Assembly (NCBI GenBank): GCA_021816845.1
Contig: JAKAWT010000002.1
Location: forward strand, 33,017 to 97,016
Direction of reading: 5' to 3'
From: a bacterium
GTDB lineage: Bacteria > Patescibacteriota > Dojkabacteria > JAKAPS01 > JAJZLI01
DNA length: 64,000 nt
The notes beneath the pieces were generated by a model, which saw only the letters and a program-made list of their open reading frames with translations, did no database searches and had not been told where the DNA came from. Every line of letters begins with the position of its first letter. Position 1 is the stretch's first letter. The translations under genes were made by a program, and so were the position numbers. Of this stretch, positions 3,089 through 59,141 are shown in pieces.

Positions 3089-5476
3089 CTATCTAAAAGT
3101 AAGGGTGTCCTTAAATTCCTTCAATAATGTGTTTTTTATATCATCAATCTTATCTTTTATTTCAGTACCTAAAAATGTTTTCTCAAAGTTTTCAAACACC
3201 AATCTTATTGTTATACTTGTTTCATCATTTTTGATCTTGTCTCCGTTATAAATATCTATAATATCTTTTGTTTTTAGATTTGTGTCATTAATTTTATCCA
3301 GTATGTCTTTAGAATTAATTTTATTTTTATATAATATTGTTATATCTTCTTTTATTTCTGGAAATTTAGATATATTTTTTATATTAATAAATTTACCTAT
3401 ATTATTATGTAGATCTTCTATATTAATATCAAAAATTGATAAGCTTCCATATATCCCGAAGTTTTCTTTAACAAGTGAACTTATATCACCTATCTCACCT
3501 ATATAGTTTCCAGATATATAAACTTTACTACCCTTATTCTTTAAAAATGGTTTCTCTGGGTTACCACTATATTCGAATGTATTATTCAAATTCAAATATA
3601 AATTTATGGTATCAAGGATTCCTTTTATATGGAAAAATGACTCCTCTTTATCTTTACTAAAATATGCAGTTATAAGATGTAACTCTTCTTTTGGTTGAAT
3701 AGTATTGTTTTTTAGATAAATATTAGCTATCTCATATAATATAAAAGAATCCATATGTTTTTGGTTAGTACTTACTATATCAAGCATGGATGGTATTAAT
3801 GAAGGTCTTAAAAGATCAAAATTGGGTGATATAGGATTTAAGATCCTTATTGAATCATTTTTGATTAAAGATTTATCCATTAAAGCCTGGTTTATGAAAG
3901 AATAGGTCTTTATTTCATAACCTCCAAGCGATGCGATGATTCTTATTATCTTATTATTCATTTCAAATGTAAGGTTCTTTCTTACAGGCATAATAGTCAT
4001 ATTGGAATCTTCAATATTAATATTGTCATATCCATATATCCTACCAATCTCTTCAATCAAGTCTACATCTTCTTTTATATCAAATCTTGTATCAGGTATA
4101 GTTGCAAAAATAAAATTTTTAATTTGTTTATTTTTAATATCTAAACTTGATAATATACTAGAAACATCATTTATAGGGATATTCATTCCTAAAACTTTCT
4201 CTATTTTAGAGATGTCCAATTTTATAACTAAATTATCCTCCAATTTTTTTGTTATAACATCAGTAACTAAGCTTGATATATTACCATTAGTAGTTTGTAT
4301 AATTAGATCTATTGCATAATTTAATGCTTTTAATGCTAATGACTGTGAAATACCTTTCTCATACCTTAATACTGCTTCAGATCTTATATTCACTGATTTT
4401 GCACTTTTTCTAACAAGTGATGAATTAAAGGTTGCACTTTCTAGTAATATGCTTTGCGTATTTTCATCTATTTCTGATTCTTTTCCTCCCATTACCCCAG
4501 CTATTCCTATACTTGCATTTTTTGTTGCTATGACATAATTATTTTCTTTTAATAATCTTCTTTTTGAATCAAGGGTAATAATTTCTTCATTATATTTTGC
4601 TTTCCTTACATATATTTCTAGATTATTATCTTTAGATATTTTTGAAAGGTCAAAGGCGTGTAAAGGTTGTCCTAAATTTACCATCACATAGTTTGTTATA
4701 TCTACTATGTTGTTTATAGGTTTAATACCTAAATTTTTCAATCTTTCTCTCATCCAGAAAGGAGATTCTTCAACTTTGAGATTGTCAATAGTAACTGCAC
4801 AATATCTATAACAAAATTCTTTATCCTCAATATTAACCTTTAATTTGTTATCCTTGTTAGTTCTTATTTTGGGTATAACTTTTTCACTAAAAGGTTTATT
4901 TTGTATAGCAGCAAATTCCCTTGCAATACCCTGATGGGAAAATAAATCACCTCTATGAGATATAACTTTGTTGTCAATATCTATAATTGTATCTTTGATG
5001 ACACTTTTGAGGCTTTTACCTATATATTTTCTAAATAACATATCTTCAGTAGATCCAGATCCAAGATCAAGAATTCCAGAATGGTTTTCTCCTAAACCTA
5101 GTTCTTTCTCTGAACACATCATTCCATAAGATATCTCACCTCTAAAATCATGTTTTTCTATATTCTGTCCATTTATCTTTCCTCCTGCCAAAACTACTGG
5201 GACTATCATCCCTTTATATACATTAGGTGCTCCAGTTATGATTTGTATTTCCTTATTCTTAATGTCTACCTTTGTTACATAAAGTCTATCTGCATTCTTG
5301 TGTTTATAAATCTCTTTTACTTCACCTATTAATATGTCCTCTTCAAATGAAGGATATTCTGTTATTGAATCAACATCCACTGATTTTATTGCGAATCTAT
5401 CTATAAGGTTATAAAGATCGTTCCTATTGTCAGGGATATAGGTATATTTTTTTATTAAATCTAAAGATATTTTCAT
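3089..5476 (-). CDS. pheT: Phenylalanyl-tRNA synthetase beta subunit
   Basis: 795 aa. Domain architecture and its position immediately after pheS in the conserved thrS-infC-rpmI-rplT-pheS-pheT arrangement. Confidence 0.9.
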   Translation of the reverse strand: MKISLDLIKKYTYIPDNRNDLYNLIDRFAIKSVDVDSITEYPSFEEDILIGEVKEIYKHKNADRLYVTKVDIKNKEIQIITGAPNVYKGMIVPVVLAGGKINGQNIEKHDFRGEISYGMMCSEKELGLGENHSGILDLGSGSTEDMLFRKYIGKSLKSVIKDTIIDIDNKVISHRGDLFSHQGIAREFAAIQNKPFSEKVIPKIRTNKDNKLKVNIEDKEFCYRYCAVTIDNLKVEESPFWMRERLKNLGIKPINNIVDITNYVMVNLGQPLHAFDLSKISKDNNLEIYVRKAKYNEEIITLDSKRRLLKENNYVIATKNASIGIAGVMGGKESEIDENTQSILLESATFNSSLVRKSAKSVNIRSEAVLRYEKGISQSLALKALNYAIDLIIQTTNGNISSLVTDVITKKLEDNLVIKLDISKIEKVLGMNIPINDVSSILSSLDIKNKQIKNFIFATIPDTRFDIKEDVDLIEEIGRIYGYDNINIEDSNMTIMPVRKNLTFEMNNKIIRIIASLGGYEIKTYSFINQALMDKSLIKNDSIRILNPISPNFDLLRPSLIPSMLDIVSTNQKHMDSFILYEIANIYLKNNTIQPKEELHLITAYFSKDKEESFFHIKGILDTINLYLNLNNTFEYSGNPEKPFLKNKGSKVYISGNYIGEIGDISSLVKENFGIYGSLSIFDINIEDLHNNIGKFINIKNISKFPEIKEDITILYKNKINSKDILDKINDTNLKTKDIIDIYNGDKIKNDETSITIRLVFENFEKTFLGTEIKDKIDDIKNTLLKEFKDTLTFR

Positions 5477-6534
5477 TATATGTTCCTAAATTGAGATAAG
5501 AATCTTATATCATTTTCATAGAAAAGTCTTGTATCATCAACTCTGTCTTTTATCATAACTAGTCTTTCTATACCTGTCCCGAATGCAAATCCTTGATATT
5601 TATTTGGGTCTATATTAACATTTCTCAGTACTTGTGGGTGTACCATACCAGCTCCTAACAGTTCTAGCCATCCTTTATTGGAGCATATTTTGCACCCCTT
5701 CATATCGCAAAATATGCAAGAACAATCTATTTCTATACTTGGCTCTGTAAAAGGAAAATATGAGTTTCTTATTCTTAATCTTATATTCTCATTATCAAAT
5801 ATCCTTTTTAAGGCTCCTTGCAATATATTTGATAAATCTTTTAAATTACTTTTATCATCAATAACTAACCCTTCAAATTGATGAAACATAAAGGAATGTC
5901 TAGAATCACTATTTTCATTCCTATAAACTTTTCCCGGTGCGATAATCCTTATTGGTGGAGCATTATTCTGCATTGTTCTTATCTGGACAGAAGAGGTATG
6001 AGTCCTTGGTAGTAATTCATCTTCCTTTATATAAAATGTGTCTTGCATGTCTCTAGCAGGATGCCCTATTGGTATATTTAATGCTTGAAAACAAAACCAA
6101 TCAGTTTCAATTTCAGGGCCTTCTGCAATTTCGAAACCATAGACCGCAAAAGTATCTTCTATTAGTTTTATCATTGCACTGATTGGATGGATAGAGCCTA
6201 TACTCAATGTTTTACCTGTATTTAATTTATATCCTGATATTGTAGTGTCTATTGTTTCACTATCCTCTTTGTCATAAAGAGTTTGTCTTAATTTCTCTTC
6301 TTGCTGTTTCAAATTATTGGAGATATTCTCTTTTACTTTGTTGGCAAATTGACCAATTTCTTTTCTTTCTGAAATAGTTAATTTTGATATATTTCTCAAT
6401 ATTGCTGATAAATCGCTGTTCTTTCCTAAATTAGTAGAGTGGAATTTCTTAATATCCTCTAGATTTTCTAGAGTTTCTATAGCACTTATAGATGTTTTCC
6501 ATATTTTTTCAACATCCTTTTTTATTTTTTCCAT
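5476..6534 (-). CDS. pheS: Phenylalanyl-tRNA synthetase alpha subunit
   Basis: Class II core motifs FPFTEPSIEID and GWLELLGAGMVHPQVL. 352 aa. Confidence 0.92.
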   Translation of the reverse strand: MEKIKKDVEKIWKTSISAIETLENLEDIKKFHSTNLGKNSDLSAILRNISKLTISERKEIGQFANKVKENISNNLKQQEEKLRQTLYDKEDSETIDTTISGYKLNTGKTLSIGSIHPISAMIKLIEDTFAVYGFEIAEGPEIETDWFCFQALNIPIGHPARDMQDTFYIKEDELLPRTHTSSVQIRTMQNNAPPIRIIAPGKVYRNENSDSRHSFMFHQFEGLVIDDKSNLKDLSNILQGALKRIFDNENIRLRIRNSYFPFTEPSIEIDCSCIFCDMKGCKICSNKGWLELLGAGMVHPQVLRNVNIDPNKYQGFAFGTGIERLVMIKDRVDDTRLFYENDIRFLSQFRNI

Positions 6535-49880: not shown

Positions 49881-49952
49881 AGTGAGAGACGGGATTCGGA
49901 CCCGCGATCTCTTCCTTGGGAAGGAAGCATTCTACCACTGAACTACTCTCAC
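49881..49952 (-). tRNA. tRNA-Gly (anticodon CCC)
   Basis: Manual fold: acceptor GTGAGAG/CTCTCAC, anticodon stem CTTCC/GGAAG, loop TTCCCAA. The T-loop reads TCCGAAT, which is atypical. No CCA. Confidence 0.65.
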
Positions 49953-49959
49953 ATTATTA

Positions 49960-50031
49960 GCCGATAAGCAGACTCAAACTGCTGTCTCCACTTTACGAGG
50001 GTGATGCTTTATCAGTTAAGCTATATCGGCA
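49960..50031 (-). tRNA. tRNA-Thr (anticodon CGT)
   Basis: Manual fold: acceptor GCCGATA/TATCGGC, D-stem GCTT/AAGC, loop CTCGTAA, T-arm AGCAGTTTGAGTCTGCT. No CCA. Confidence 0.65.
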
Positions 50032-50752: not shown

Positions 50753-51433
50753 TTGGATATTTCTAAACTATTTTTCACAATATCAAATTTAATAACTATT
50801 AATGATATCACATTCATAGTAAATACTGTTGTACTGCCTAATCTTTATGTATTTATCTTTCTATATATAATGTTTGAAGAGATGGGATTCCCTATGATTA
50901 TACCAGGAGAATTTTTTGTATTTTTAACAGGGTATGAAATAGCTCTTGGTAAAGCTGATCCAATAATTTTATTTTGTTTAATACTACTTGCTACTTTTAT
51001 AGGGTCAAGTGTGCTCTATTCGATTTTATCATGGAAAGGTATTAATTTTATAGAGAAATATGGGAGATATATCATGATGCCTAAATCTAAGATCGAAAAA
51101 GTTCAGAATTGGTTTCTACAAAATGGAGTTAGAGCAATTATTTTAGGAAGATGGATTTTCGGTCTCAGGATTATTACGAATATAGTAAGCGGAATTTTTA
51201 GGTATCCATATAAAAAATTTGTATTTTTGACTATGTTTGCAACCTTCTTTTGGATATTATTCTACTTTATTTTGGGAATATTTTTTGGTAAATATTATAC
51301 CTCTATAATATCTTTCTTAAGCCATTTTAATAGCATAGTTATAGAATTAGTTTATCTTACCTTTATAACTTCAATAACCTTTTTATCTCTACATATTACA
51401 AAAAAATTAGGAGAACGTAATAGACCTAATTAA
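50753..51433 (+). CDS. DedA/TVP38 family membrane protein (paralog 3 of 3)
   Basis: FEEMGFPMIIPGEFFVF and ILGRWIFGLRIITNIVSG. Confidence 0.75.
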   Translation: MDISKLFFTISNLITINDITFIVNTVVLPNLYVFIFLYIMFEEMGFPMIIPGEFFVFLTGYEIALGKADPIILFCLILLATFIGSSVLYSILSWKGINFIEKYGRYIMMPKSKIEKVQNWFLQNGVRAIILGRWIFGLRIITNIVSGIFRYPYKKFVFLTMFATFFWILFYFILGIFFGKYYTSIISFLSHFNSIVIELVYLTFITSITFLSLHITKKLGERNRPN

Positions 51434-53660
51434 TACTGTTACAATCACCTGCTGGAATCTGAGTACTTCCTGATGGTATTAAAGTTGATGGGTATGCAGT
51501 TATTTTCATTTTAGAATTCAGTGGAGTTATGTATGCAATAGTTGAATTTGCTGGTATAGCTATGTATGAATAGGATCCTGTAGGTTGATTCTGTATTAAA
51601 CATACCTCCATAGTTTGATTTGCAGAAGCTCCAGTTAATATTTGTAATTCATAATTTGCTGTTGTTATATTAGGTGAAGATGGCGTTATTAGACTATTTA
51701 TATTTATTAAAAGATCAGGGAAAGATGAATGTGTACTTGAAGATGCTGTAGTTGTAACCTGTGCGTTTATAGAAGTATACTCTACTAAATCTTGATATCC
51801 TCCAAATGAAAAAAGGTCTGAAGCTCCTGATCCAGTATATACTGAATAACCCATTGCTGATGTTGGGGCAAGCATTGTGGTTGTAGGTTGCCAAGAAGAT
51901 AAATTACTAAGCGTTGAATAGTATGTACTATTTGATACCTGTCCATTTAATATCCCTCCAAAAGAATACAGATAATTGGTACCTGCATCTGCTGGATCTG
52001 GAAGTATACCTATACCTTCATTGTAAATACCACCTGGGAATGTTGATTGTTGTACCATCTGTATTTGTGATGGTAGTACAGTCCCCTGATATGTTGTATT
52101 AGAGCTAGGGAATGAAAATCCTATATAACTAATTTGTCCTGTTTGGGGATTTGTTACCATTATTTGCATATTATCTCCTTGGTTCCACACCCAACTACCA
52201 TAATCACCTCCATAATTAGCATAAGGATGATTAATAATGATTTGACTGTTATTCCATGATTGGTAATCTACTGTTACAACATTTACATATTGTCCACCTT
52301 CCCAACCCGCCATCCAACCACGTGTTTGATCAAAAAGAGAGAAATATGGGGAATCCCCTATTCTTGGAGATAGGTATCCTAGATTACAACCATTAATAAT
52401 ATATTCTGTATTCCCAGCACTACCACCACTTCCACTTGATACTACATCTAGTGATGTTATAGAGGTATTTGTACTACTGGTACAATTAGGCTGTGCAACT
52501 AGGTTGTATACATATATGGAATTACTTCCACCTCCTCCATTATTTCCTCCTACAATGTAAGCATATCCATTTGAGACGGATACTGTTATACCTGATCCAT
52601 ATAAGGATTGTGGGATTGTTCCTACTTGTGTCCAGCTAGATAATCCTCCGCCTGGTTCTATATTTGCTTCATATATTGTATTCAATGGACTCCCTTGTGA
52701 ATTTCTACCTCCAAACAGGAAAATATTATTTTGGTATTCCACTGCTGATGCGTGGTATACATTTTGTGGTAAAGATGATGTCTGACTCCATGAAGCTATA
52801 TTAGATAGTGGTGCAACATAAACATTGGTTGTAGGGCTAGAATAATAGTATGTGTATGATTCCCACTGACAGGTATATTCCCACCAATATCCATTGACGA
52901 GGTTAGTATGGACATAAACTAATTTCCATCCACAAACATATCTGCCAGAGACTGTATATGAACTATTTACTCCTCCGATGCTATAAATATATGAACCGTT
53001 CGTGACTACAGAATTATCATATACTGCACTTGGTAAGTTTGAGACATTGCTCCAGTTGGTAGTCCCAGTTTGAGACATAGTTGTTTCATATACAGAGCTT
53101 AATGCTGTGCTTCCATTTAGTCCTCCAATCATGTATTCATTTGATCCATAGCTTGTATTCCCTGCATTTGATACATCTTGTGGAAGTGATTGTGTCCCTT
53201 GAGATGTCCAATGATTTAGAGTGCCGTTATATGTAGTAGTTGTTGTTGTATGAGATGTTGATGTAATACTTCCTTGAAGATTTATTGCCATAGATTGTCC
53301 TTGGTTCACCGTTCCTAAAGCTTCATTTTGTGGAACTATATTATATGTACATGTAGGTTTTGGAGGTGTGGCCTTTATATTTCCAGTAGTACAATTGGTA
53401 GGTACTGTTGGTGTAGGCAGAGGTTGAGGAATAGGGTTTGTAGTACTTGTAAATTCATTACTCCCTATATATGATAGCCCATTTTGAATACCAGATTGTG
53501 CTGCCGAAAACGCTATTTGTCCAGAGTAAGTTAATGAATTTTGAGAAGTATTTAGTATTACTTTAGATGTCAGTGAAAGCATCATGATCAATAGGACTAT
53601 AGCAATAAGCATAACTATTATAAGGGTCTGTCCTTTTGAATCAATTTTACCTATATTCAC
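51426..53660 (-). CDS. Large surface protein: pilin-like N-terminal anchor plus Kelch-type beta-propeller repeats
   Basis: N-terminus KIDSKGQTLIIVMLIAIVLLIMMLSLTS. Kelch-like repeats: YIYSIGG, NNIFLFGGRNSQGSPLN, GYAYIVGGNNGGGG, YLYSFGG, LFSFGGY. 744 aa. Confidence 0.5.
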   Translation of the reverse strand: MNIGKIDSKGQTLIIVMLIAIVLLIMMLSLTSKVILNTSQNSLTYSGQIAFSAAQSGIQNGLSYIGSNEFTSTTNPIPQPLPTPTVPTNCTTGNIKATPPKPTCTYNIVPQNEALGTVNQGQSMAINLQGSITSTSHTTTTTTYNGTLNHWTSQGTQSLPQDVSNAGNTSYGSNEYMIGGLNGSTALSSVYETTMSQTGTTNWSNVSNLPSAVYDNSVVTNGSYIYSIGGVNSSYTVSGRYVCGWKLVYVHTNLVNGYWWEYTCQWESYTYYYSSPTTNVYVAPLSNIASWSQTSSLPQNVYHASAVEYQNNIFLFGGRNSQGSPLNTIYEANIEPGGGLSSWTQVGTIPQSLYGSGITVSVSNGYAYIVGGNNGGGGSNSIYVYNLVAQPNCTSSTNTSITSLDVVSSGSGGSAGNTEYIINGCNLGYLSPRIGDSPYFSLFDQTRGWMAGWEGGQYVNVVTVDYQSWNNSQIIINHPYANYGGDYGSWVWNQGDNMQIMVTNPQTGQISYIGFSFPSSNTTYQGTVLPSQIQMVQQSTFPGGIYNEGIGILPDPADAGTNYLYSFGGILNGQVSNSTYYSTLSNLSSWQPTTTMLAPTSAMGYSVYTGSGASDLFSFGGYQDLVEYTSINAQVTTTASSSTHSSFPDLLININSLITPSSPNITTANYELQILTGASANQTMEVCLIQNQPTGSYSYIAIPANSTIAYITPLNSKMKITAYPSTLIPSGSTQIPAGDCNSIN

Positions 53661-53741
53661 AATTATAATATAATATATACCAAAAAAGTATGCAATACTA
53701 TATTGTGATAGTATGTTAGGTGTTATTTATGGTCTTTTAAT

Positions 53742-54416
53742 ATGAAACATTTTAAAATGAAAATACTACTTAGAATTCTCTTATTAATTGTATTTATAGG
53801 ACTCGCTATATTTATATATACTTATTCTAAAATCAAATATGTAAATATTAGTGGAAGCATATATTCAAGCAATCTATCTTCTTTGAATAATCAAATAAAA
53901 TCTACTATAAAAGGTCAAAATATTTTTTTTACTTCTAATAAAACTTTTTATAATGATATACAGAAAGTATATCCTTTCTTTAGTTTTAATGATCTTAGAA
54001 TAGAAAAAAAATATCCAAATCAGGTATCAATATATATAAAAAGTTACAGAGTATTATTTTCATATAGTTTTAGAAATAATATATTTTTTGTATCTAATAA
54101 TGGTGATACTGTTAAGGCTTATAAAGACAATAATATAGTTAACATAGTATCTTATATAAAACCCAAACACACACAAATTTTAGATATGGTGAAACTAGTT
54201 ACTGATGTTAACAATGAATATCTATTATCTGTCTCATCATATAACTTATATAGTTCATATGTACAACTTAATATGGGATCAAAAACAGCAATTTTAACAT
54301 TTGAAAGATCTATAAAATCCCAAGTATTGGAACTAAATGATGTTCTTCAGACAGTAAATATGGCAGGATGTAAAGTAATCAATGTTGAATTTAGCAGGGT
54401 GTTCTGTGGGGCTTAG
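53742..54416 (+). CDS. FtsQ/DivIB-like cell division protein (single TM + POTRA-like region)
   Basis: N-terminal TM helix, then about 190 aa. Position immediately upstream of ftsA-ftsZ. Confidence 0.55.
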   Translation: MKHFKMKILLRILLLIVFIGLAIFIYTYSKIKYVNISGSIYSSNLSSLNNQIKSTIKGQNIFFTSNKTFYNDIQKVYPFFSFNDLRIEKKYPNQVSIYIKSYRVLFSYSFRNNIFFVSNNGDTVKAYKDNNIVNIVSYIKPKHTQILDMVKLVTDVNNEYLLSVSSYNLYSSYVQLNMGSKTAILTFERSIKSQVLELNDVLQTVNMAGCKVINVEFSRVFCGA

Positions 54417-54476
54417 ATATTTAAAGTATGAATATTGAAGATAAATGTATTTTAATATATACTATCTATTAATATT

Positions 54477-55781
54477 ATGAAAGGCATTATTACAGGCATA
54501 GATGTAGGATCTTCAAAAATTACAACTGTAATTGTTAATGTTGATGAAGAAAATATATCAGTTATAGGAGTTTCTACCCACCCCTCGGAAGGCTTAAAAA
54601 AGGGAGTCATTATAAATATAGATGCAGCGATAAAAGCTATATCTGAGTCTGTGGAGGCTGCTGAAAGGATGGCTGGAGTGAGAATTCAAAATGCAGCGAT
54701 ATCTCTTGGGTGTAAACATATATCTTCAACTAATAATAAAGGAGTTGTAGCAATATCTAGAGATGAAATATCTGGAGAAGATGTATTACGTGCTTTAGAG
54801 AGTGCAAGGACTGTATCTGTTCCTCAATCAAGAGAAATAATGCATGTGATACCAAGAGAATTTATAGTAGATTCGCAGGGTGGTATTAAGGATCCTATTG
54901 GTATGTCTGGAATTAGATTAGAGGTTGATACACATATTATAACCATTACAAGTATGGTATTACATAACCTGACTAAATGTATAAATCAAGTAGGTCTTTC
55001 TGTTGAAGATATCTTGTTTTCTGGCTGGATTGATGCAGAAGTTATTTTATCATCAACAGAAAGAGAACTTGGAGTGATACTTATTGATATTGGTTTTGGA
55101 GTATCAGATGTTGTCATATATATTGATGATTCAATATCATATTCTTTTTCAGTGCCTATAGGTAGTTCAAATATAACTAATGATATAGCCATAGGATTAC
55201 GTTTATCTATAGATGATGCTGAAAAGGTGAAAGTATCAATACCGACCCTTATAAAAAAAGCTCAACAAAGGCAAGAGCAAGAAGAAAAAGATAAGAAATA
55301 TACTTACCCTAAGAAAGAAACTTCAGATATAAAGGAACAAGATCTTATGTTGAATCTTTCTGATATAGGAATACAGACGGAAAACGGCTATGAAGAGATA
55401 AAAAAAAGTATGTTAGATGATATTATTGATGCTAGGTTAGAAGAAATATTTTCAGCTATTATAGATGATATAACAAAGTCAGGCTTTGATTACAAAATGC
55501 CTGCAGGAGTTGTATTGACTGGGGGTGGTTCTAAGCTAGCTGGGATATCTAAAATAGCACAAAAATACTTTTCTTCAGCAGCAAGAGTGGGATATGCATC
55601 TAACCTGAAAGGTCTTACAGAAGAAATATCTGGTCCAGCCTATACTACGGTTTATGGGTTAATTAATTCTGTTATTAAAAATAGTAATGATGGAAGTAGA
55701 AACAATAATTCTTTAGGTAAGAATGGTAGTGGGTTTAATGCATCAAAGATTATAGATCTTATAAAATCTATAATGCCTTGA
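54477..55781 (+). CDS. ftsA: Cell division protein FtsA
   Basis: GIDVGSSKITTVIV and LTGGGSKLAGISKIAQKYF (actin-like ATPase). Confidence 0.9.
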   Translation: MKGIITGIDVGSSKITTVIVNVDEENISVIGVSTHPSEGLKKGVIINIDAAIKAISESVEAAERMAGVRIQNAAISLGCKHISSTNNKGVVAISRDEISGEDVLRALESARTVSVPQSREIMHVIPREFIVDSQGGIKDPIGMSGIRLEVDTHIITITSMVLHNLTKCINQVGLSVEDILFSGWIDAEVILSSTERELGVILIDIGFGVSDVVIYIDDSISYSFSVPIGSSNITNDIAIGLRLSIDDAEKVKVSIPTLIKKAQQRQEQEEKDKKYTYPKKETSDIKEQDLMLNLSDIGIQTENGYEEIKKSMLDDIIDARLEEIFSAIIDDITKSGFDYKMPAGVVLTGGGSKLAGISKIAQKYFSSAARVGYASNLKGLTEEISGPAYTTVYGLINSVIKNSNDGSRNNNSLGKNGSGFNASKIIDLIKSIMP

Positions 55782-55837
55782 TATTTCCTATATAATATGG
55801 AATAATTGTCAAAGTATAATCTTAATAATAATTTTGT

Positions 55838-56989
55838 ATGTTAGTAAAACCTCAGTCTCTAGATAATAACGCTAAAATAAAAGTAGTTGGTGTTGGTGGA
55901 GGTGGAAATAATGCTTTAAATACAATGATTTCTGTACACAATATAACAGGGGTTGATTTTATATCTGTTAATACTGATTCTCAAGCACTTAAAAATTCTT
56001 TAGCAGAAACAAAAATTCAAATAGGATCAGAACTCACCAAAGGTTTGGGTTCAGGAGGTATAGCATCAATAGGAAAACAAGCCGCTGAAGAGAGTGTAGA
56101 TTTAATTCATGAATCTCTATCTGGTGGTGATATGGTTTTTGTTACTGCAGGTATGGGTGGTGGTACTGGAACTGGGGCTTCTCCTGTAGTTGCTGGTATA
56201 GCAAAAAATCTAGGTGCTCTAACTGTAGGCGTTGTAACAAAACCTTTTACTTTTGAAGGGAAAAGGAGGATTCAAACAGCAATTGAAGGTATTGAGGATC
56301 TAAAAGGTAAAGTTGATACACTGATCGTTGTGCCCAACCAAAGACTCCTTGATATTATTGATAAAAAAATTTCTTTTTTAGAAGCTATGAAAATAGTTGA
56401 TGATGTTTTAGGTCAAGGTGTAAGAAGTATATCTGATCTTATAACTAAATCAGGGATGATTAACGTTGACTTTGCTGATGTTAAGGCTATTATGTCTGAG
56501 GCTGGTACAGCGTTAATGGGTATGGGTATTGCTACTGGTGACAATAGAGCTAAGGATGCAGCAAAACAAGCTATCAATAGTCCCCTATTAGAGTTATCCA
56601 TTAATGGAGCAACAGGTATCTTATTTAATATAACTTCTGGACCTGATTTATCAATGGTTGAAGTTGATGAAGCTGCAAATTTAATATCTGAAGCTGCAGA
56701 TACAAATGCAAATATCATATTTGGAGCGACAATAGACGATAGTATACAAGATGCTTCAATAAGGATTAATGTCCTTGCTACTGGTTTTGAAGAAAAAACC
56801 CAGGATAAGATAATAAGAGATAAGGGCTTTAATAGGCCTACAATTACACAAGAAGCACCAAAAAAGGATACCTATATTCCCGATTATGACACCAAAGATA
56901 TTAAAGAGGATGTTATAGTAACTAATAATGAGGATGAAGAGGATGATGAATACGAGACACCTGCTTTTTTAAGAAGAATTAAGAAATAA
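55838..56989 (+). CDS. ftsZ: Cell division protein FtsZ
   Basis: [18 protein letters not shown] and tubulin signature [17 protein letters not shown]. Confidence 0.95.
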
Positions 56990-56993
56990 TTTA

Positions 56994-58001
56994 ATGAATT
57001 TAGACTTAGATTTGAACTTAAGTTTATTCAAATACTCTGTAGATATTATTACACTAAGCTCTCTTTTGAACTCTCTTGAAATTCCAAAAAAAATTACAGA
57101 TGATCTAACGATCAAAGATTTTGATCAGTTTGCAAATTTATTAAATTTAGATGTATCTAATACTAATATACGTGATTTTGCTCTAGGATATCACAGGATT
57201 GATACTGGTTTTGCTAATACAATGCTTAGTTCTTATAGAAGTATCAATGAACTTGTTAGATCTTTGTATCAGGATAAAGGGAATGTATTTACAGTATCTA
57301 CAATATTAAGGATGAATAAAGTCTTAACTGATAAAACATTTGAAGTATGGGAGAGTGGTAAATTTAGGACTATTGAATTTCCTTATCAAGGAGAATACGA
57401 TTTCATAAGGGGAGAAGATTTATCATATGATACAATCTCAACTGACATAAATATGTTAGTCGATTTTTATCAAGATTCACAATATCCTAATATATTGAAA
57501 ATACCTATAATTGGATACAACCTTTTAAAACTAAAGCCATTTTCTGTATTAAATGATTTCACTATACTTTTTATAATGAAATCTTTGATGATAGAGATTG
57601 AGATATTTAATGATTTATCTCTAGTAAAAATATTTTCAGAAAATCTTGAAAATATGCAAATTTCGAACCAATCTTTAGATACATGGGTTGGAAACTTTTT
57701 TAAATACATATACATTGAATTATTAGAGATTTATGATTTTATAAATAAATATATTTCATTAGAAAAACGAAGATTAAATTCAGATAAAATTGTATCAATA
57801 CTGTCGGATAGACAAAAGAAAGCATTTTTGTTTTTTGTAGATCATAGGACTCTTACAAGACAGGAGTATTCGAGGATGTTTAAAATATCTCCTATGACAG
57901 CATTTAGAGATTTAGATATGATGAAGGAGTTAGGAATACTAACTGTTTTTGGTAAAGGTAGAGGTACTAAATATACTATAATGGAGAAATATTTATTATA
58001 G
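56994..58001 (+). CDS. Fic-family-like protein with degenerate active-site motif and C-terminal winged-HTH
   Basis: The C-terminus LSDRQKKAFLFFVDHRTLTRQEYSRMFKISPMTAFRDLDMMKELGILTVFGKGRGTKYTI matches the Fic C-terminal wHTH pattern. The core-motif position reads LKLKPFSVLNDFT instead of HPFx(D/E)GNGR. Confidence 0.4.
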   Translation: MNLDLDLNLSLFKYSVDIITLSSLLNSLEIPKKITDDLTIKDFDQFANLLNLDVSNTNIRDFALGYHRIDTGFANTMLSSYRSINELVRSLYQDKGNVFTVSTILRMNKVLTDKTFEVWESGKFRTIEFPYQGEYDFIRGEDLSYDTISTDINMLVDFYQDSQYPNILKIPIIGYNLLKLKPFSVLNDFTILFIMKSLMIEIEIFNDLSLVKIFSENLENMQISNQSLDTWVGNFFKYIYIELLEIYDFINKYISLEKRRLNSDKIVSILSDRQKKAFLFFVDHRTLTRQEYSRMFKISPMTAFRDLDMMKELGILTVFGKGRGTKYTIMEKYLL

Positions 58002-58730
58002 ATAAGATTTTATAATATTTGCAAAATAGCTGTATGAATATGCACCTAAAATTAATTGTCCTTGTACTTTGTTGTTCTTAAGTCTACCTATCACGATTGT
58101 TGGAGTTCCCTGTATATTGATCCTATTACCACTGGCTATATCCTTTTGTATATCCAGTTCATAAGTTTTATTAGTTACACAGGATGCATATTTATTCATA
58201 TTAAGTCCCATAGTTCTGGCGTAACCTGAAACAATAGAAGGGGTATTACTATTTTGTGCTGTTGTATACATTTTATTATAATATTGCCAGAACTTACCTT
58301 GTGCTGCAAAGCATCTTCCTTCTATGGCCATTTCAGAAGATAATGGATGTATATTAGTTAATGGGTAATCTCTGAAAGCGAATACGGCTTGACCAGTTTT
58401 AACAAAATTTGTATATATAGAATTTCCTGCTCCATTTGCAAATTGTTTACAGAAAGGACATTGGAAATCACCATATTCTACTATTCCAACTTTTGCAGTC
58501 TTTAAATTGCCTTCAACTGGATAAGAACCAAGTGATACAGTTACATCTTTGTTATTTGTAGGTGGAGTAGCAATATTGGACGTTTTTGTTGATGTATTAG
58601 AATTGTTGTTTCTTGACGCTGTATTGCTAGATAATACTATAGCTGCAGCTATAATGATTCCTGCAATAACTATTGAAATTGGTAATACCATTGGGTTGGT
58701 GTGCTTAGTATTTAGATTATCCTGATTCAT
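57996..58730 (-). CDS. DsbA-family thiol-disulfide oxidoreductase, membrane-anchored
   Basis: CxxC active site FQCPFCKQF. N-terminal TM helix. 244 aa. Confidence 0.8.
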   Translation of the reverse strand: MNQDNLNTKHTNPMVLPISIVIAGIIIAAAIVLSSNTASRNNNSNTSTKTSNIATPPTNNKDVTVSLGSYPVEGNLKTAKVGIVEYGDFQCPFCKQFANGAGNSIYTNFVKTGQAVFAFRDYPLTNIHPLSSEMAIEGRCFAAQGKFWQYYNKMYTTAQNSNTPSIVSGYARTMGLNMNKYASCVTNKTYELDIQKDIASGNRINIQGTPTIVIGRLKNNKVQGQLILGAYSYSYFANIIKSYL

Positions 58731-58835
58731 ATCTACACATTATAACATACATTTTATACTTGAATCCATATTTCTATGTTTAAGAATCAGTATTGGAAAT
58801 ATTATATCTTTAGTGTTTAACCTTGTTAATATTGC

Positions 58836-59141
58836 TTGTTTATTGATATAATAATTTGTATGATAACAAAAAAAGATATACTCCATATAGCAAAACTATG
58901 TAATATCAAAATAGAAGAAAGTGAAATTTCAAAATTCCAAAATCAATTGGCTCAAATTATAGATTATATAAATATATTAAACGAGGTTGATACAGAGGAT
59001 ATAGATTCATTTTTTGAAGTTAATGATTTAGCTACTGTTTTACGTGAAGATACGACTGATATTTCTTTAGATTTTGATGATATCAAGATAAATGCTATTA
59101 ATACAGATAAAACTCAAATAAAGGTTAACAAAGTATTATGA
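58836..59141 (+). CDS. gatC: Glu/Asp-tRNA amidotransferase subunit C
   Basis: About 100 aa. KKDILHIAKLCNIKIEESEI...; immediately precedes gatA with an ATGA overlap. Confidence 0.85.
   Translation: MFIDIIICMITKKDILHIAKLCNIKIEESEISKFQNQLAQIIDYINILNEVDTEDIDSFFEVNDLATVLREDTTDISLDFDDIKINAINTDKTQIKVNKVL

Follow-up and report, generated by a model that had tools for sequence, protein, structure and literature searches.

A predicted pseudo-Fic protein with a winged helix-turn-helix, encoded directly after ftsZ in a clade of Patescibacteria

The stretch of DNA analysed in this work, called the window below, comprises 64,000 nucleotides (nt) of the forward strand of a Dojkabacteria genome (Patescibacteriota; GenBank assembly GCA_021816845.1, contig JAKAWT010000002.1, positions 33,017 to 97,016), and all coordinates are positions within it unless a locus is named. 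Immediately downstream of ftsZ lies an open reading frame (ORF), here called gene X, whose product is homologous from end to end to those class II Fic proteins that carry a winged helix-turn-helix (wHTH) at the C terminus, and in this product both the signature loop and the inhibitory motif of these enzymes are degenerate. An earlier note, made from the sequence, had placed the ORF at 56994 to 58001, 4 nt after the ftsZ stop, and this is how it stands, with TAA, TTTA and ATG following one another. The DNA of the window is 29% G+C and therefore a chance open frame of 1 kb is already unlikely. The features of gene X and its junction with ftsZ are as follows.

55838 to 56989, plus strand: ftsZ (383 aa), upstream of gene X and presumably in the same transcription unit (Pfam Tubulin E = 2.3e-48, FtsZ_C E = 2e-33)
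56990 to 56993, plus strand: spacer TTTA, 4 nt, between the TAA stop of ftsZ and the ATG of gene X (sequence)
56994 to 58001, plus strand: gene X, predicted pseudo-Fic of Fic-wHTH architecture, 335 aa, ATG start, the end coordinate including the stop (ORF list)
56994 to 57278, plus strand: N-terminal helical region, residues 1-95, counterpart of the Fic_N/DUF4172-like region in class II Fic proteins (hhalign from residue 1)
57129 to 57146, plus strand: relic of the inhibitory motif, FANLLN, residues 46-51, against canonical S-T-x-I-E-G (hhalign columns)
57279 to 57668, plus strand: Fic core, residues 96-225, with GKFR (122-125) ahead of the flap (Pfam, Foldseek)
57531 to 57569, plus strand: signature loop in degenerate form, L-KPFSVLNDFTIL (residues 180-192), where canonical proteins have HPFx(D/E)GNGRxxR (alignments)
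57675 to 57800, plus strand: long connecting helix, residues 228-269, from the Fic core to the wHTH (secondary structure of the AlphaFold2 model; aligns in 8cil)
57801 to 57986, plus strand: wHTH, residues 270-331 (Pfam HTH_DeoR at 283-317; aligns to the wHTH of CbFic2)

When gene X was searched as a single sequence, its scores stayed below the curated thresholds. The Pfam Fic profile matched residues 99-196 with positions 2-90 of 93 at E = 0.21, HTH_DeoR matched residues 283-317 at E = 0.0025 (18 bits, the cutoff being 21), a search against NCBIfam gave nothing relevant, and phmmer against the PDB returned chance matches only (an amylase inhibitor and mS34). Recognition as a Fic protein therefore required confirmation by profiles, which came. 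A profile of seven sequences found the PDB entry 8cil, named as a Fic family protein, at E = 3.4e-6, with LKPFSVLNDFT aligned on LHPFDDGNGRIGR and the alignment continuing through the C-terminal wHTH. When a profile was run exhaustively against 1.84 billion representative sequences, 2667 relatives were found at E<=1e-3, a number that falls to 248 at E<=1e-10 and to 49 at E<=1e-30; these are counted as clusters of a library at 50% identity, and the set at E<=1e-10 includes Fic-wHTH proteins with the canonical motif. A profile of the 50 closest relatives then matched 8cil at 3.8e-20, FICD at about 1e-9, 7xux (CccR) at 9.4e-6 and SoFic at 1e-4, and all 24 of its PDB matches were Fic proteins. The earlier note had proposed a comparison with Fic/Doc profiles; when the 50-member family was aligned by hhalign with 18 canonical Fic-wHTH proteins, similarity was found with a probability of 100% (E = 1.7e-53) over 346 columns covering residues 1-332.

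The same result was obtained at the level of the fold. The AlphaFold2 model of the gene X protein, built from 108 sequences, has a mean predicted local distance difference test score (pLDDT) of 95.4 and a predicted template modelling score of 0.86, and it supersedes an earlier model from seven sequences in which pLDDT was 77 and the flap region fell below 50. In the N-terminal region it places helices at residues 9-27, 32-49, 56-64 and 73-93. The top 46 Foldseek matches of the model in the PDB are all Fic proteins, and those matched at full length are CbFic2 (8cil), the Mycobacterium marinum Fic protein (7cb8), Dde_2494 (4rgl), CccR (7xux) and SoFic (3eqx/3zcn), the alignments to 8cil, 7xux, 3eqx, 4rgl and 7cb8 spanning 343-367 alignment columns; the core superposes on FICD with a root mean square deviation of 3.3-4 Å over about 250 columns. 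The gene X protein thus belongs to the Fido (Fic/Doc/AvrB) superfamily at the fold level and has the Fic-wHTH architecture of the SoFic/CbFic2/CccR type.

The catalytic signature is lost. In three independent alignments, namely the hidden Markov model alignment to 8cil, a MAFFT alignment with canonical relatives and hhalign, KPFSVLNDFTIL (residues 181-192) falls on HPFx(D/E)GNGRxxR, and of the signature only P182, F183 and N187 are retained, which agrees with the reading of LKLKPFSVLNDFT (residues 178-190 of the translation) in the earlier note. K181 now stands in place of H, V185 of D/E, L186 and D188 of the two G, and F189 and L192 of the two R, which removes the catalytic His, the acidic residue that binds metal, the pair of Gly in the anion hole and the pair of Arg; T190 matches the Thr commonly found after the first Arg. 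The protein accordingly lacks the motif that defines catalytically competent Fic AMP-transferases. It has been shown that the H192A mutation of CccR abolishes both AMPylation and toxicity (PMC9755527), and because the catalytic His is absent from gene X its AMPylation chemistry is predicted to be lost, as the earlier note had supposed. The brake of the class II enzymes has decayed as well. In the hhalign columns the inhibitory Glu of (S/T)xxxE(G/N) is replaced by Leu50, so the class II inhibitory motif is not present in gene X, and the helix that carries it is still seen in the AlphaFold2 model. R82-x-x-x-E86 was also considered as the relic of this motif and was rejected, since hhalign pairs that region with the canonical 'N-Y' helix. 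The loss of the activity together with its brake would fit a protein that no longer transfers nucleotides.

These changes are not peculiar to the window. The loci examined number 87 and consist of a clade of 14 with at least 39% identity to gene X (L001-L014) and 73 distant loci with 21-31% identity (L015-L087); a scan of one genome per species gave 111 loci, of which 80 were fetched. The earlier note had asked whether relatives keep an intact HPFxxGNGR, and none of the 87 does, the loop being degenerate in 14 of 14 loci of the ftsZ-linked clade and in 73 of 73 distant ones. The His position is occupied by Lys in the clade of the window and by Ala, Ser, Tyr, Cys or Gln elsewhere, and therefore no substitute catalytic residue is conserved, which argues against a relocated base. 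Within the window itself neither a canonical Fic motif nor a second copy of gene X was found.

What is conserved, above all, is the wHTH. The earlier note had recognized in residues 271-329 (SDRQKKAF...GKGRGTKYTI in the translation) a C-terminal wHTH typical of Fic proteins, and the alignment with CbFic2 and the extension of the hhalign alignment to residue 332 bear this out. Its recognition helix reads S299-x-M-T-A-F-R-D-L307 and its wing G320-K-G-R-G-T-K-Y327. In the alignment of 50 family members, 44 of which match HTH_DeoR, the wHTH is the peak of conservation, with R273, R289, S299, T302, R305, D306 and Y327 invariant and with the consensus S-x-M-T-A-[FY]-R-D-L in the recognition helix and G-x-G-R-G-T-K-Y in the wing; the canonical relatives conserve the same residues. 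Lesser peaks are formed by P182/F183/N187/T190 and by E-x-W-x-x-G-K-x-R (117-125), which precedes the flap and in which R125 is conserved in 92% and W119 in 86% of the family. It is known that the homologous wHTH binds DNA in CbFic2 (PMC10628234) and that CccR represses its own promoter by binding of its wHTH to a palindrome (PMC9755527), and from the invariant residues of the recognition helix and wing the wHTH of gene X probably binds DNA too. No DeoRC sugar-phosphate domain was matched by Pfam in gene X, the HTH match being the only DeoR-type match and lying at the C terminus; gene X is therefore not a DeoR-family regulator, and the likeness is only at the level of the wHTH subclass.

When gene X was compared with its 89%-identical orthologue in L008, the ratio of nonsynonymous to synonymous substitution rates (dN/dS) was 0.079 at a dS of 0.77. 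By domain it was 0.078 in the Fic core and 0.056 in the wHTH, and for the neighbouring genes it was 0.074 in ftsA, 0.046 in ftsZ and 0.11 in dsbA. The orthologues, with 39-89% identity, have an intact frame of 332-336 aa as called in the source collection. Strong purifying selection thus acts on the Fic fold and the GxxR/flap region, and most of all on the wHTH.

The surroundings of gene X in the window are made up of the following features.

53742 to 54416, plus strand: ftsQ-like gene, upstream of ftsZ (no Pfam match in the window; the L003 orthologue has a weak POTRA_1 match)
54477 to 55781, plus strand: ftsA, upstream of ftsZ (Pfam FtsA, SHS2_FTSA)
57996 to 58730, minus strand: DsbA-like thioredoxin gene, convergent with gene X (Pfam Thioredoxin_4 E = 5.9e-23, DSBA E = 2.7e-13)
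49959 to 50030, minus strand: tRNA-Thr(cgt), 7 kb upstream of gene X
49881 to 49952: tRNA-Gly(ccc), paired with tRNA-Thr(cgt), 7 kb upstream of gene X

The gatCAB genes follow 0.8 kb downstream of gene X, and the DsbA-like gene marks where the ftsZ-X unit ends; a scan of 53600-58900 found no terminator-like sites. The 3' ends of gene X and of the DsbA-like gene overlap by 6 nt (57996-58001), and tail-to-tail overlaps of about 4-9 nt between the two genes are seen in all loci of the clade that have downstream sequence. L001-L014 share the block ftsQ-ftsA-ftsZ-X-(dsbA, convergent)-gatCAB. Upstream sequence is available for 12 loci of the clade; in 10 of these ftsZ and X are 2-10 nt apart, and in L001 and L002, depending on the start call, 18-30 nt. 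In most of them the spacers upstream of ftsQ, between ftsQ and ftsA and between ftsA and ftsZ measure 42-80 nt. So short a gap before X cannot accommodate a separate promoter, nor, in the window, a terminator after ftsZ, and therefore X is presumably co-transcribed with ftsZ.

This adjacency was found only in the clade of the window, and in the 73 distant loci there was no ftsZ near X in the flanks fetched (up to 6 kb on each side). There X is repeatedly accompanied by a convergent uvrC (28 loci), gatB or gatCAB (16), an unannotated pair of membrane proteins (14) and an MraY-type glycosyltransferase-4 (14). The most frequent of all is tRNA-Thr(CGU), which lies within 600 nt upstream of X in 44 of the 73 loci (31 with the tRNA on the strand of X, 13 with it on the other), with a tRNA-Gly often before it. 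Its distance from X is often only 12-60 nt (for example in L029 at 5661-5733, L033 at 5765-5840 and L052 at 5766-5838), and this proximity could be pure synteny or could reflect co-transcription of the tRNA with the mRNA. The simplest reading is that the order tRNA-Thr / X / gatB is the older one and that ftsQAZ together with three other genes were interposed later in the clade of the window, because the window still has the tRNA-Thr 7 kb upstream. No integrase or defence genes were seen among the annotated recurrent neighbour families of X.

The fetched loci are labelled mostly as Candidatus Dojkabacteria/WS6 or Saccharibacteria, the others being other Patescibacteria, and the name given by NCBI to near-identical proteins is 'Fic family protein [Patescibacteria group bacterium]'. 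In a rough neighbour-joining tree the clade of the window falls inside one large clade of about 70 representatives that are all degenerate, and the canonical proteins lie on the other side together with two further degenerate groups. This tree, which is not rigorous, suggests a single old loss of the motif in this lineage, and the family appears to have been inherited vertically. Such further groups number at least two, P0099-P0152 and P0100-P0141; they are Fic-wHTH-like proteins of about 310-330 aa with degenerate motifs of their own (for example APFESLNS, MAPFAKNNE, MRPFDNSNQ), and as they fall with the canonical enzymes in the rough tree, catalytic decay of Fic-wHTH proteins may have occurred several times. 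Two outlying matches were seen as well. P0056, a giant protein of 2918 aa, has four separate stretches matching the family profile, the best-scoring of which matches the wHTH part only (profile 270-330), and may carry tandem wHTH copies in a very different architecture. In L085 (CAZIEL010000083.1, labelled as an uncultured archaeon) only the wHTH is matched, at 3259-3450 of that sequence (query 270-333, 42% identity), inside an ORF of 328 aa.

The closest characterized relative, by sequence (3.8e-20 with the family profile) as well as by fold (E = 8e-9), is CbFic2 of Coxiella burnetii (CBU_0822; 8CIL), which has been described as a DNA-stimulated (de)AMPylase of histone H3 (PMC10628234). CbFic2 and gene X share the N-terminal helical region, the Fic core, the long helix and a C-terminal DeoR-type wHTH in which RQ, S-x-x-T-A-x-R-[DE]-L and G-x-G-R-x-x-Y align. 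However, CbFic2 has an intact HPFDDGNGRIGR and the inhibitory TSAIEG and gene X has neither, and the identity between them is 12-15%. SoFic of Shewanella oneidensis (SO_4266; 3EQX/3ZCN; fold E = 3.5e-7) has the same class II Fic-wHTH architecture, but it is an active, autoinhibited AMPylase, whereas gene X has neither the motif nor the inhibitory Glu and does not lie in a defence island. CccR of Yersinia pseudotuberculosis (7XUX), likewise a Fic protein with a C-terminal HTH, is a DNA-binding autorepressor and binds FtsZ (PMC9755527), and it is the only precedent that joins the Fic-wHTH architecture to FtsZ. Unlike gene X, which is predicted to be dead, chromosomal, housekeeping-like and in cis with ftsZ, CccR is an active AMPylase for which H192 is essential and a toxin secreted by the type VI secretion system. 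Fic folds that have become binding scaffolds are also on record. FIC domains of Bartonella effectors, such as that of BepC, have been described as non-canonical or motif-less folds serving as binding scaffolds (PMC7842960, PMC8401265), and AvrB has the Fic fold without the canonical motif and is a binding scaffold rather than an AMPylase (PMC4454073). These are secreted effectors that target the host and have no wHTH, whereas gene X is intracellular, apparently vertically inherited and provided with a wHTH.

A probable explanation for these observations, to which we assign a probability of roughly 0.6, is that gene X encodes a non-catalytic DNA-binding regulator or adaptor which descends from a class II Fic-wHTH ancestor and is co-transcribed with ftsZ in the clade of the window. 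The ancestor would have been passed on vertically while its AMP-transfer loop and its autoinhibitory Glu motif both decayed, so that the present protein would modify no proteins any longer. It would act on DNA through its wHTH, either as a transcription regulator or as an adaptor anchored to DNA, with the dead Fic domain serving as a scaffold for dimerization, for the docking of a partner or ligand, or for both. In the clade, the ftsZ mRNA would also be the source of X, the amount of which would then be tied to the synthesis of FtsZ. Several points weigh against this explanation. Co-transcription is deduced only from gene spacing, and a scan of 53600-58900 for promoters and terminators gave 34 promoter-like sites where 35.4 were expected and no terminators, which is uninformative at 29% G+C. 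DNA binding by X is proposed from homology. When the DNA preceding X in 71 distant loci was searched for a conserved palindrome resembling an operator, nothing usable came up, and the inverted repeats enriched there (GCTC-n8-GAGC, CGGT-n7-ACCG, GTGAG-n7-CTCAC) appear to be stems of the adjoining tRNA-Thr. Finally, pseudoenzymes sometimes stay active through relocated residues, which from the sequence alone would be conceivable for X too.

The earlier note had gone one step further and suggested a division-linked regulator. The part of this that stands is the tight adjacency of ftsZ and X within the clade; the link to division is not established, because the adjacency is confined to one syntenic clade. 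A division-specific adaptor would use the dead Fic domain to dock FtsZ, linking FtsZ or the Z-ring with DNA, or it would regulate the genes of the division and cell wall (dcw) cluster, acting in this clade of Patescibacteria as a factor of the nucleoid-occlusion type or as one that positions the Z-ring. It is in keeping with such a role that ftsZ and X are adjacent (2-30 nt) in 12 of 12 clade loci with upstream sequence, where X is as little as 39% identical, that the GxxR/flap region is conserved, and that CccR, with the same architecture (7xux fold E = 3e-7, sequence 9.4e-6), pulls down FtsZ and AMPylates its Thr8 (PMC9755527). However, the whole block of eight genes is syntenic in that one clade, so that shared ancestry explains the adjacency; the distant loci have tRNA-Thr(CGU) rather than ftsZ as the recurrent neighbour; and Thr8 of FtsZ, the target of CccR, has been reported to be conserved only in Enterobacteriaceae (PMC9755527). 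The division link thus comes from the presumed co-transcription in a single lineage and from the analogy with CccR, any division role for gene X is speculative, and we regard this adaptor as an unlikely though not negligible alternative. Its boldest form, in which a dead, DNA-bound Fic scaffold was kept across Patescibacteria and sits in the ftsZ unit because the Fic groove binds FtsZ, is more doubtful still; if it were true, small genomes would gain a nucleoid-linked regulator of the Z-ring.

Another possibility is that the protein is still an enzyme, with altered chemistry or relocated residues (Lys181 as the base, for example), or a sensor that binds nucleotides. Doc is a kinase and AnkX is a phosphocholine transferase. 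That the Fic fold supports several chemistries (see also PMC4454073) and that the Fic core of gene X is under purifying selection would be in line with this. However, none of the residues that bind phosphate or metal is left (the two G are now L and D, the two R are F and L, and D/E is V), the His position is unconserved in the family, and the autoinhibitory Glu is lost too, as is expected where there is no activity to restrain, which makes a remaining enzyme very improbable. More improbable again is an anti-phage defence gene of the SoFic type or a Fic/Doc toxin of a toxin-antitoxin module. The PADLOC model of SoFic does match gene X (E = 9.8e-8) and a member from Dojkabacteria (E = 2.4e-20), but in gene X the match spans only residues 218-333, that is the helix and the wHTH, the active site is absent, and the context (ftsQAZ, dsbA, gatCAB, uvrC and tRNA) is a conserved housekeeping one in a family that is apparently vertical. 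Membership in the SoFic anti-phage system was rejected on the partial match, the dead motif and these neighbours, and membership in a Doc/Fic toxin-antitoxin module on the dead motif and on the lack of a small antitoxin ORF beside gene X, whose neighbours are ftsZ at 4 nt and the convergent dsbA. A decaying pseudogene or a spurious ORF might be suspected from the degenerate motif and from the single-sequence Pfam scores below threshold; the intact frame in the orthologues, the low dN/dS at a dS of 0.77 and the confident AlphaFold2 fold refute it, and its probability is practically nil.

The proposal of a non-catalytic DNA-binding regulator or adaptor bears on how Fic proteins are viewed, as they have been studied almost entirely as enzymes or toxins. 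In the pseudo-Fic-wHTH family, nature offers a clean example of a Fic pseudoenzyme whose role is intracellular and housekeeping-like, within a phylum with few understood regulators, and the label 'Fic family protein' implies an activity that these proteins almost certainly lack. Public annotation already implies the assignment to Fic, and secreted effectors with degenerate Fic domains have been described before; what is new is a large, apparently vertical pseudo-Fic-wHTH family in Patescibacteria together with its ftsZ-operon variant. In the literature covered, which was incomplete, nothing relevant was found on Fic proteins in Patescibacteria or Dojkabacteria. The position in the ftsZ operon of one clade and the precedent of CccR and FtsZ make a concrete hypothesis, and this is to be taken as a lead and no more.

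Two further observations concern the surroundings of the operon. Divergent from ftsQ, the minus strand of the window encodes at 51426-53660 a protein of 744 aa with Kelch repeats (Pfam Kelch_KLHDC2 E = 1.9e-19), which by eye has a hydrophobic, pilin-like N terminus (MNIGKIDSKGQTLIIVMLIAIV...) and stretches rich in Thr and Ser; it is kept in L008 (dN/dS 0.12) and is apparently missing at that position in L003. In the spacer between ftsA and ftsZ, just past the ftsA stop, there is an imperfect palindrome, TTCCTATATAATATGGAA (55785-55802), which L008 has with one change and which is unrecognisable in the loci with 39-45% identity; it may represent an operator or else a hairpin in the RNA.

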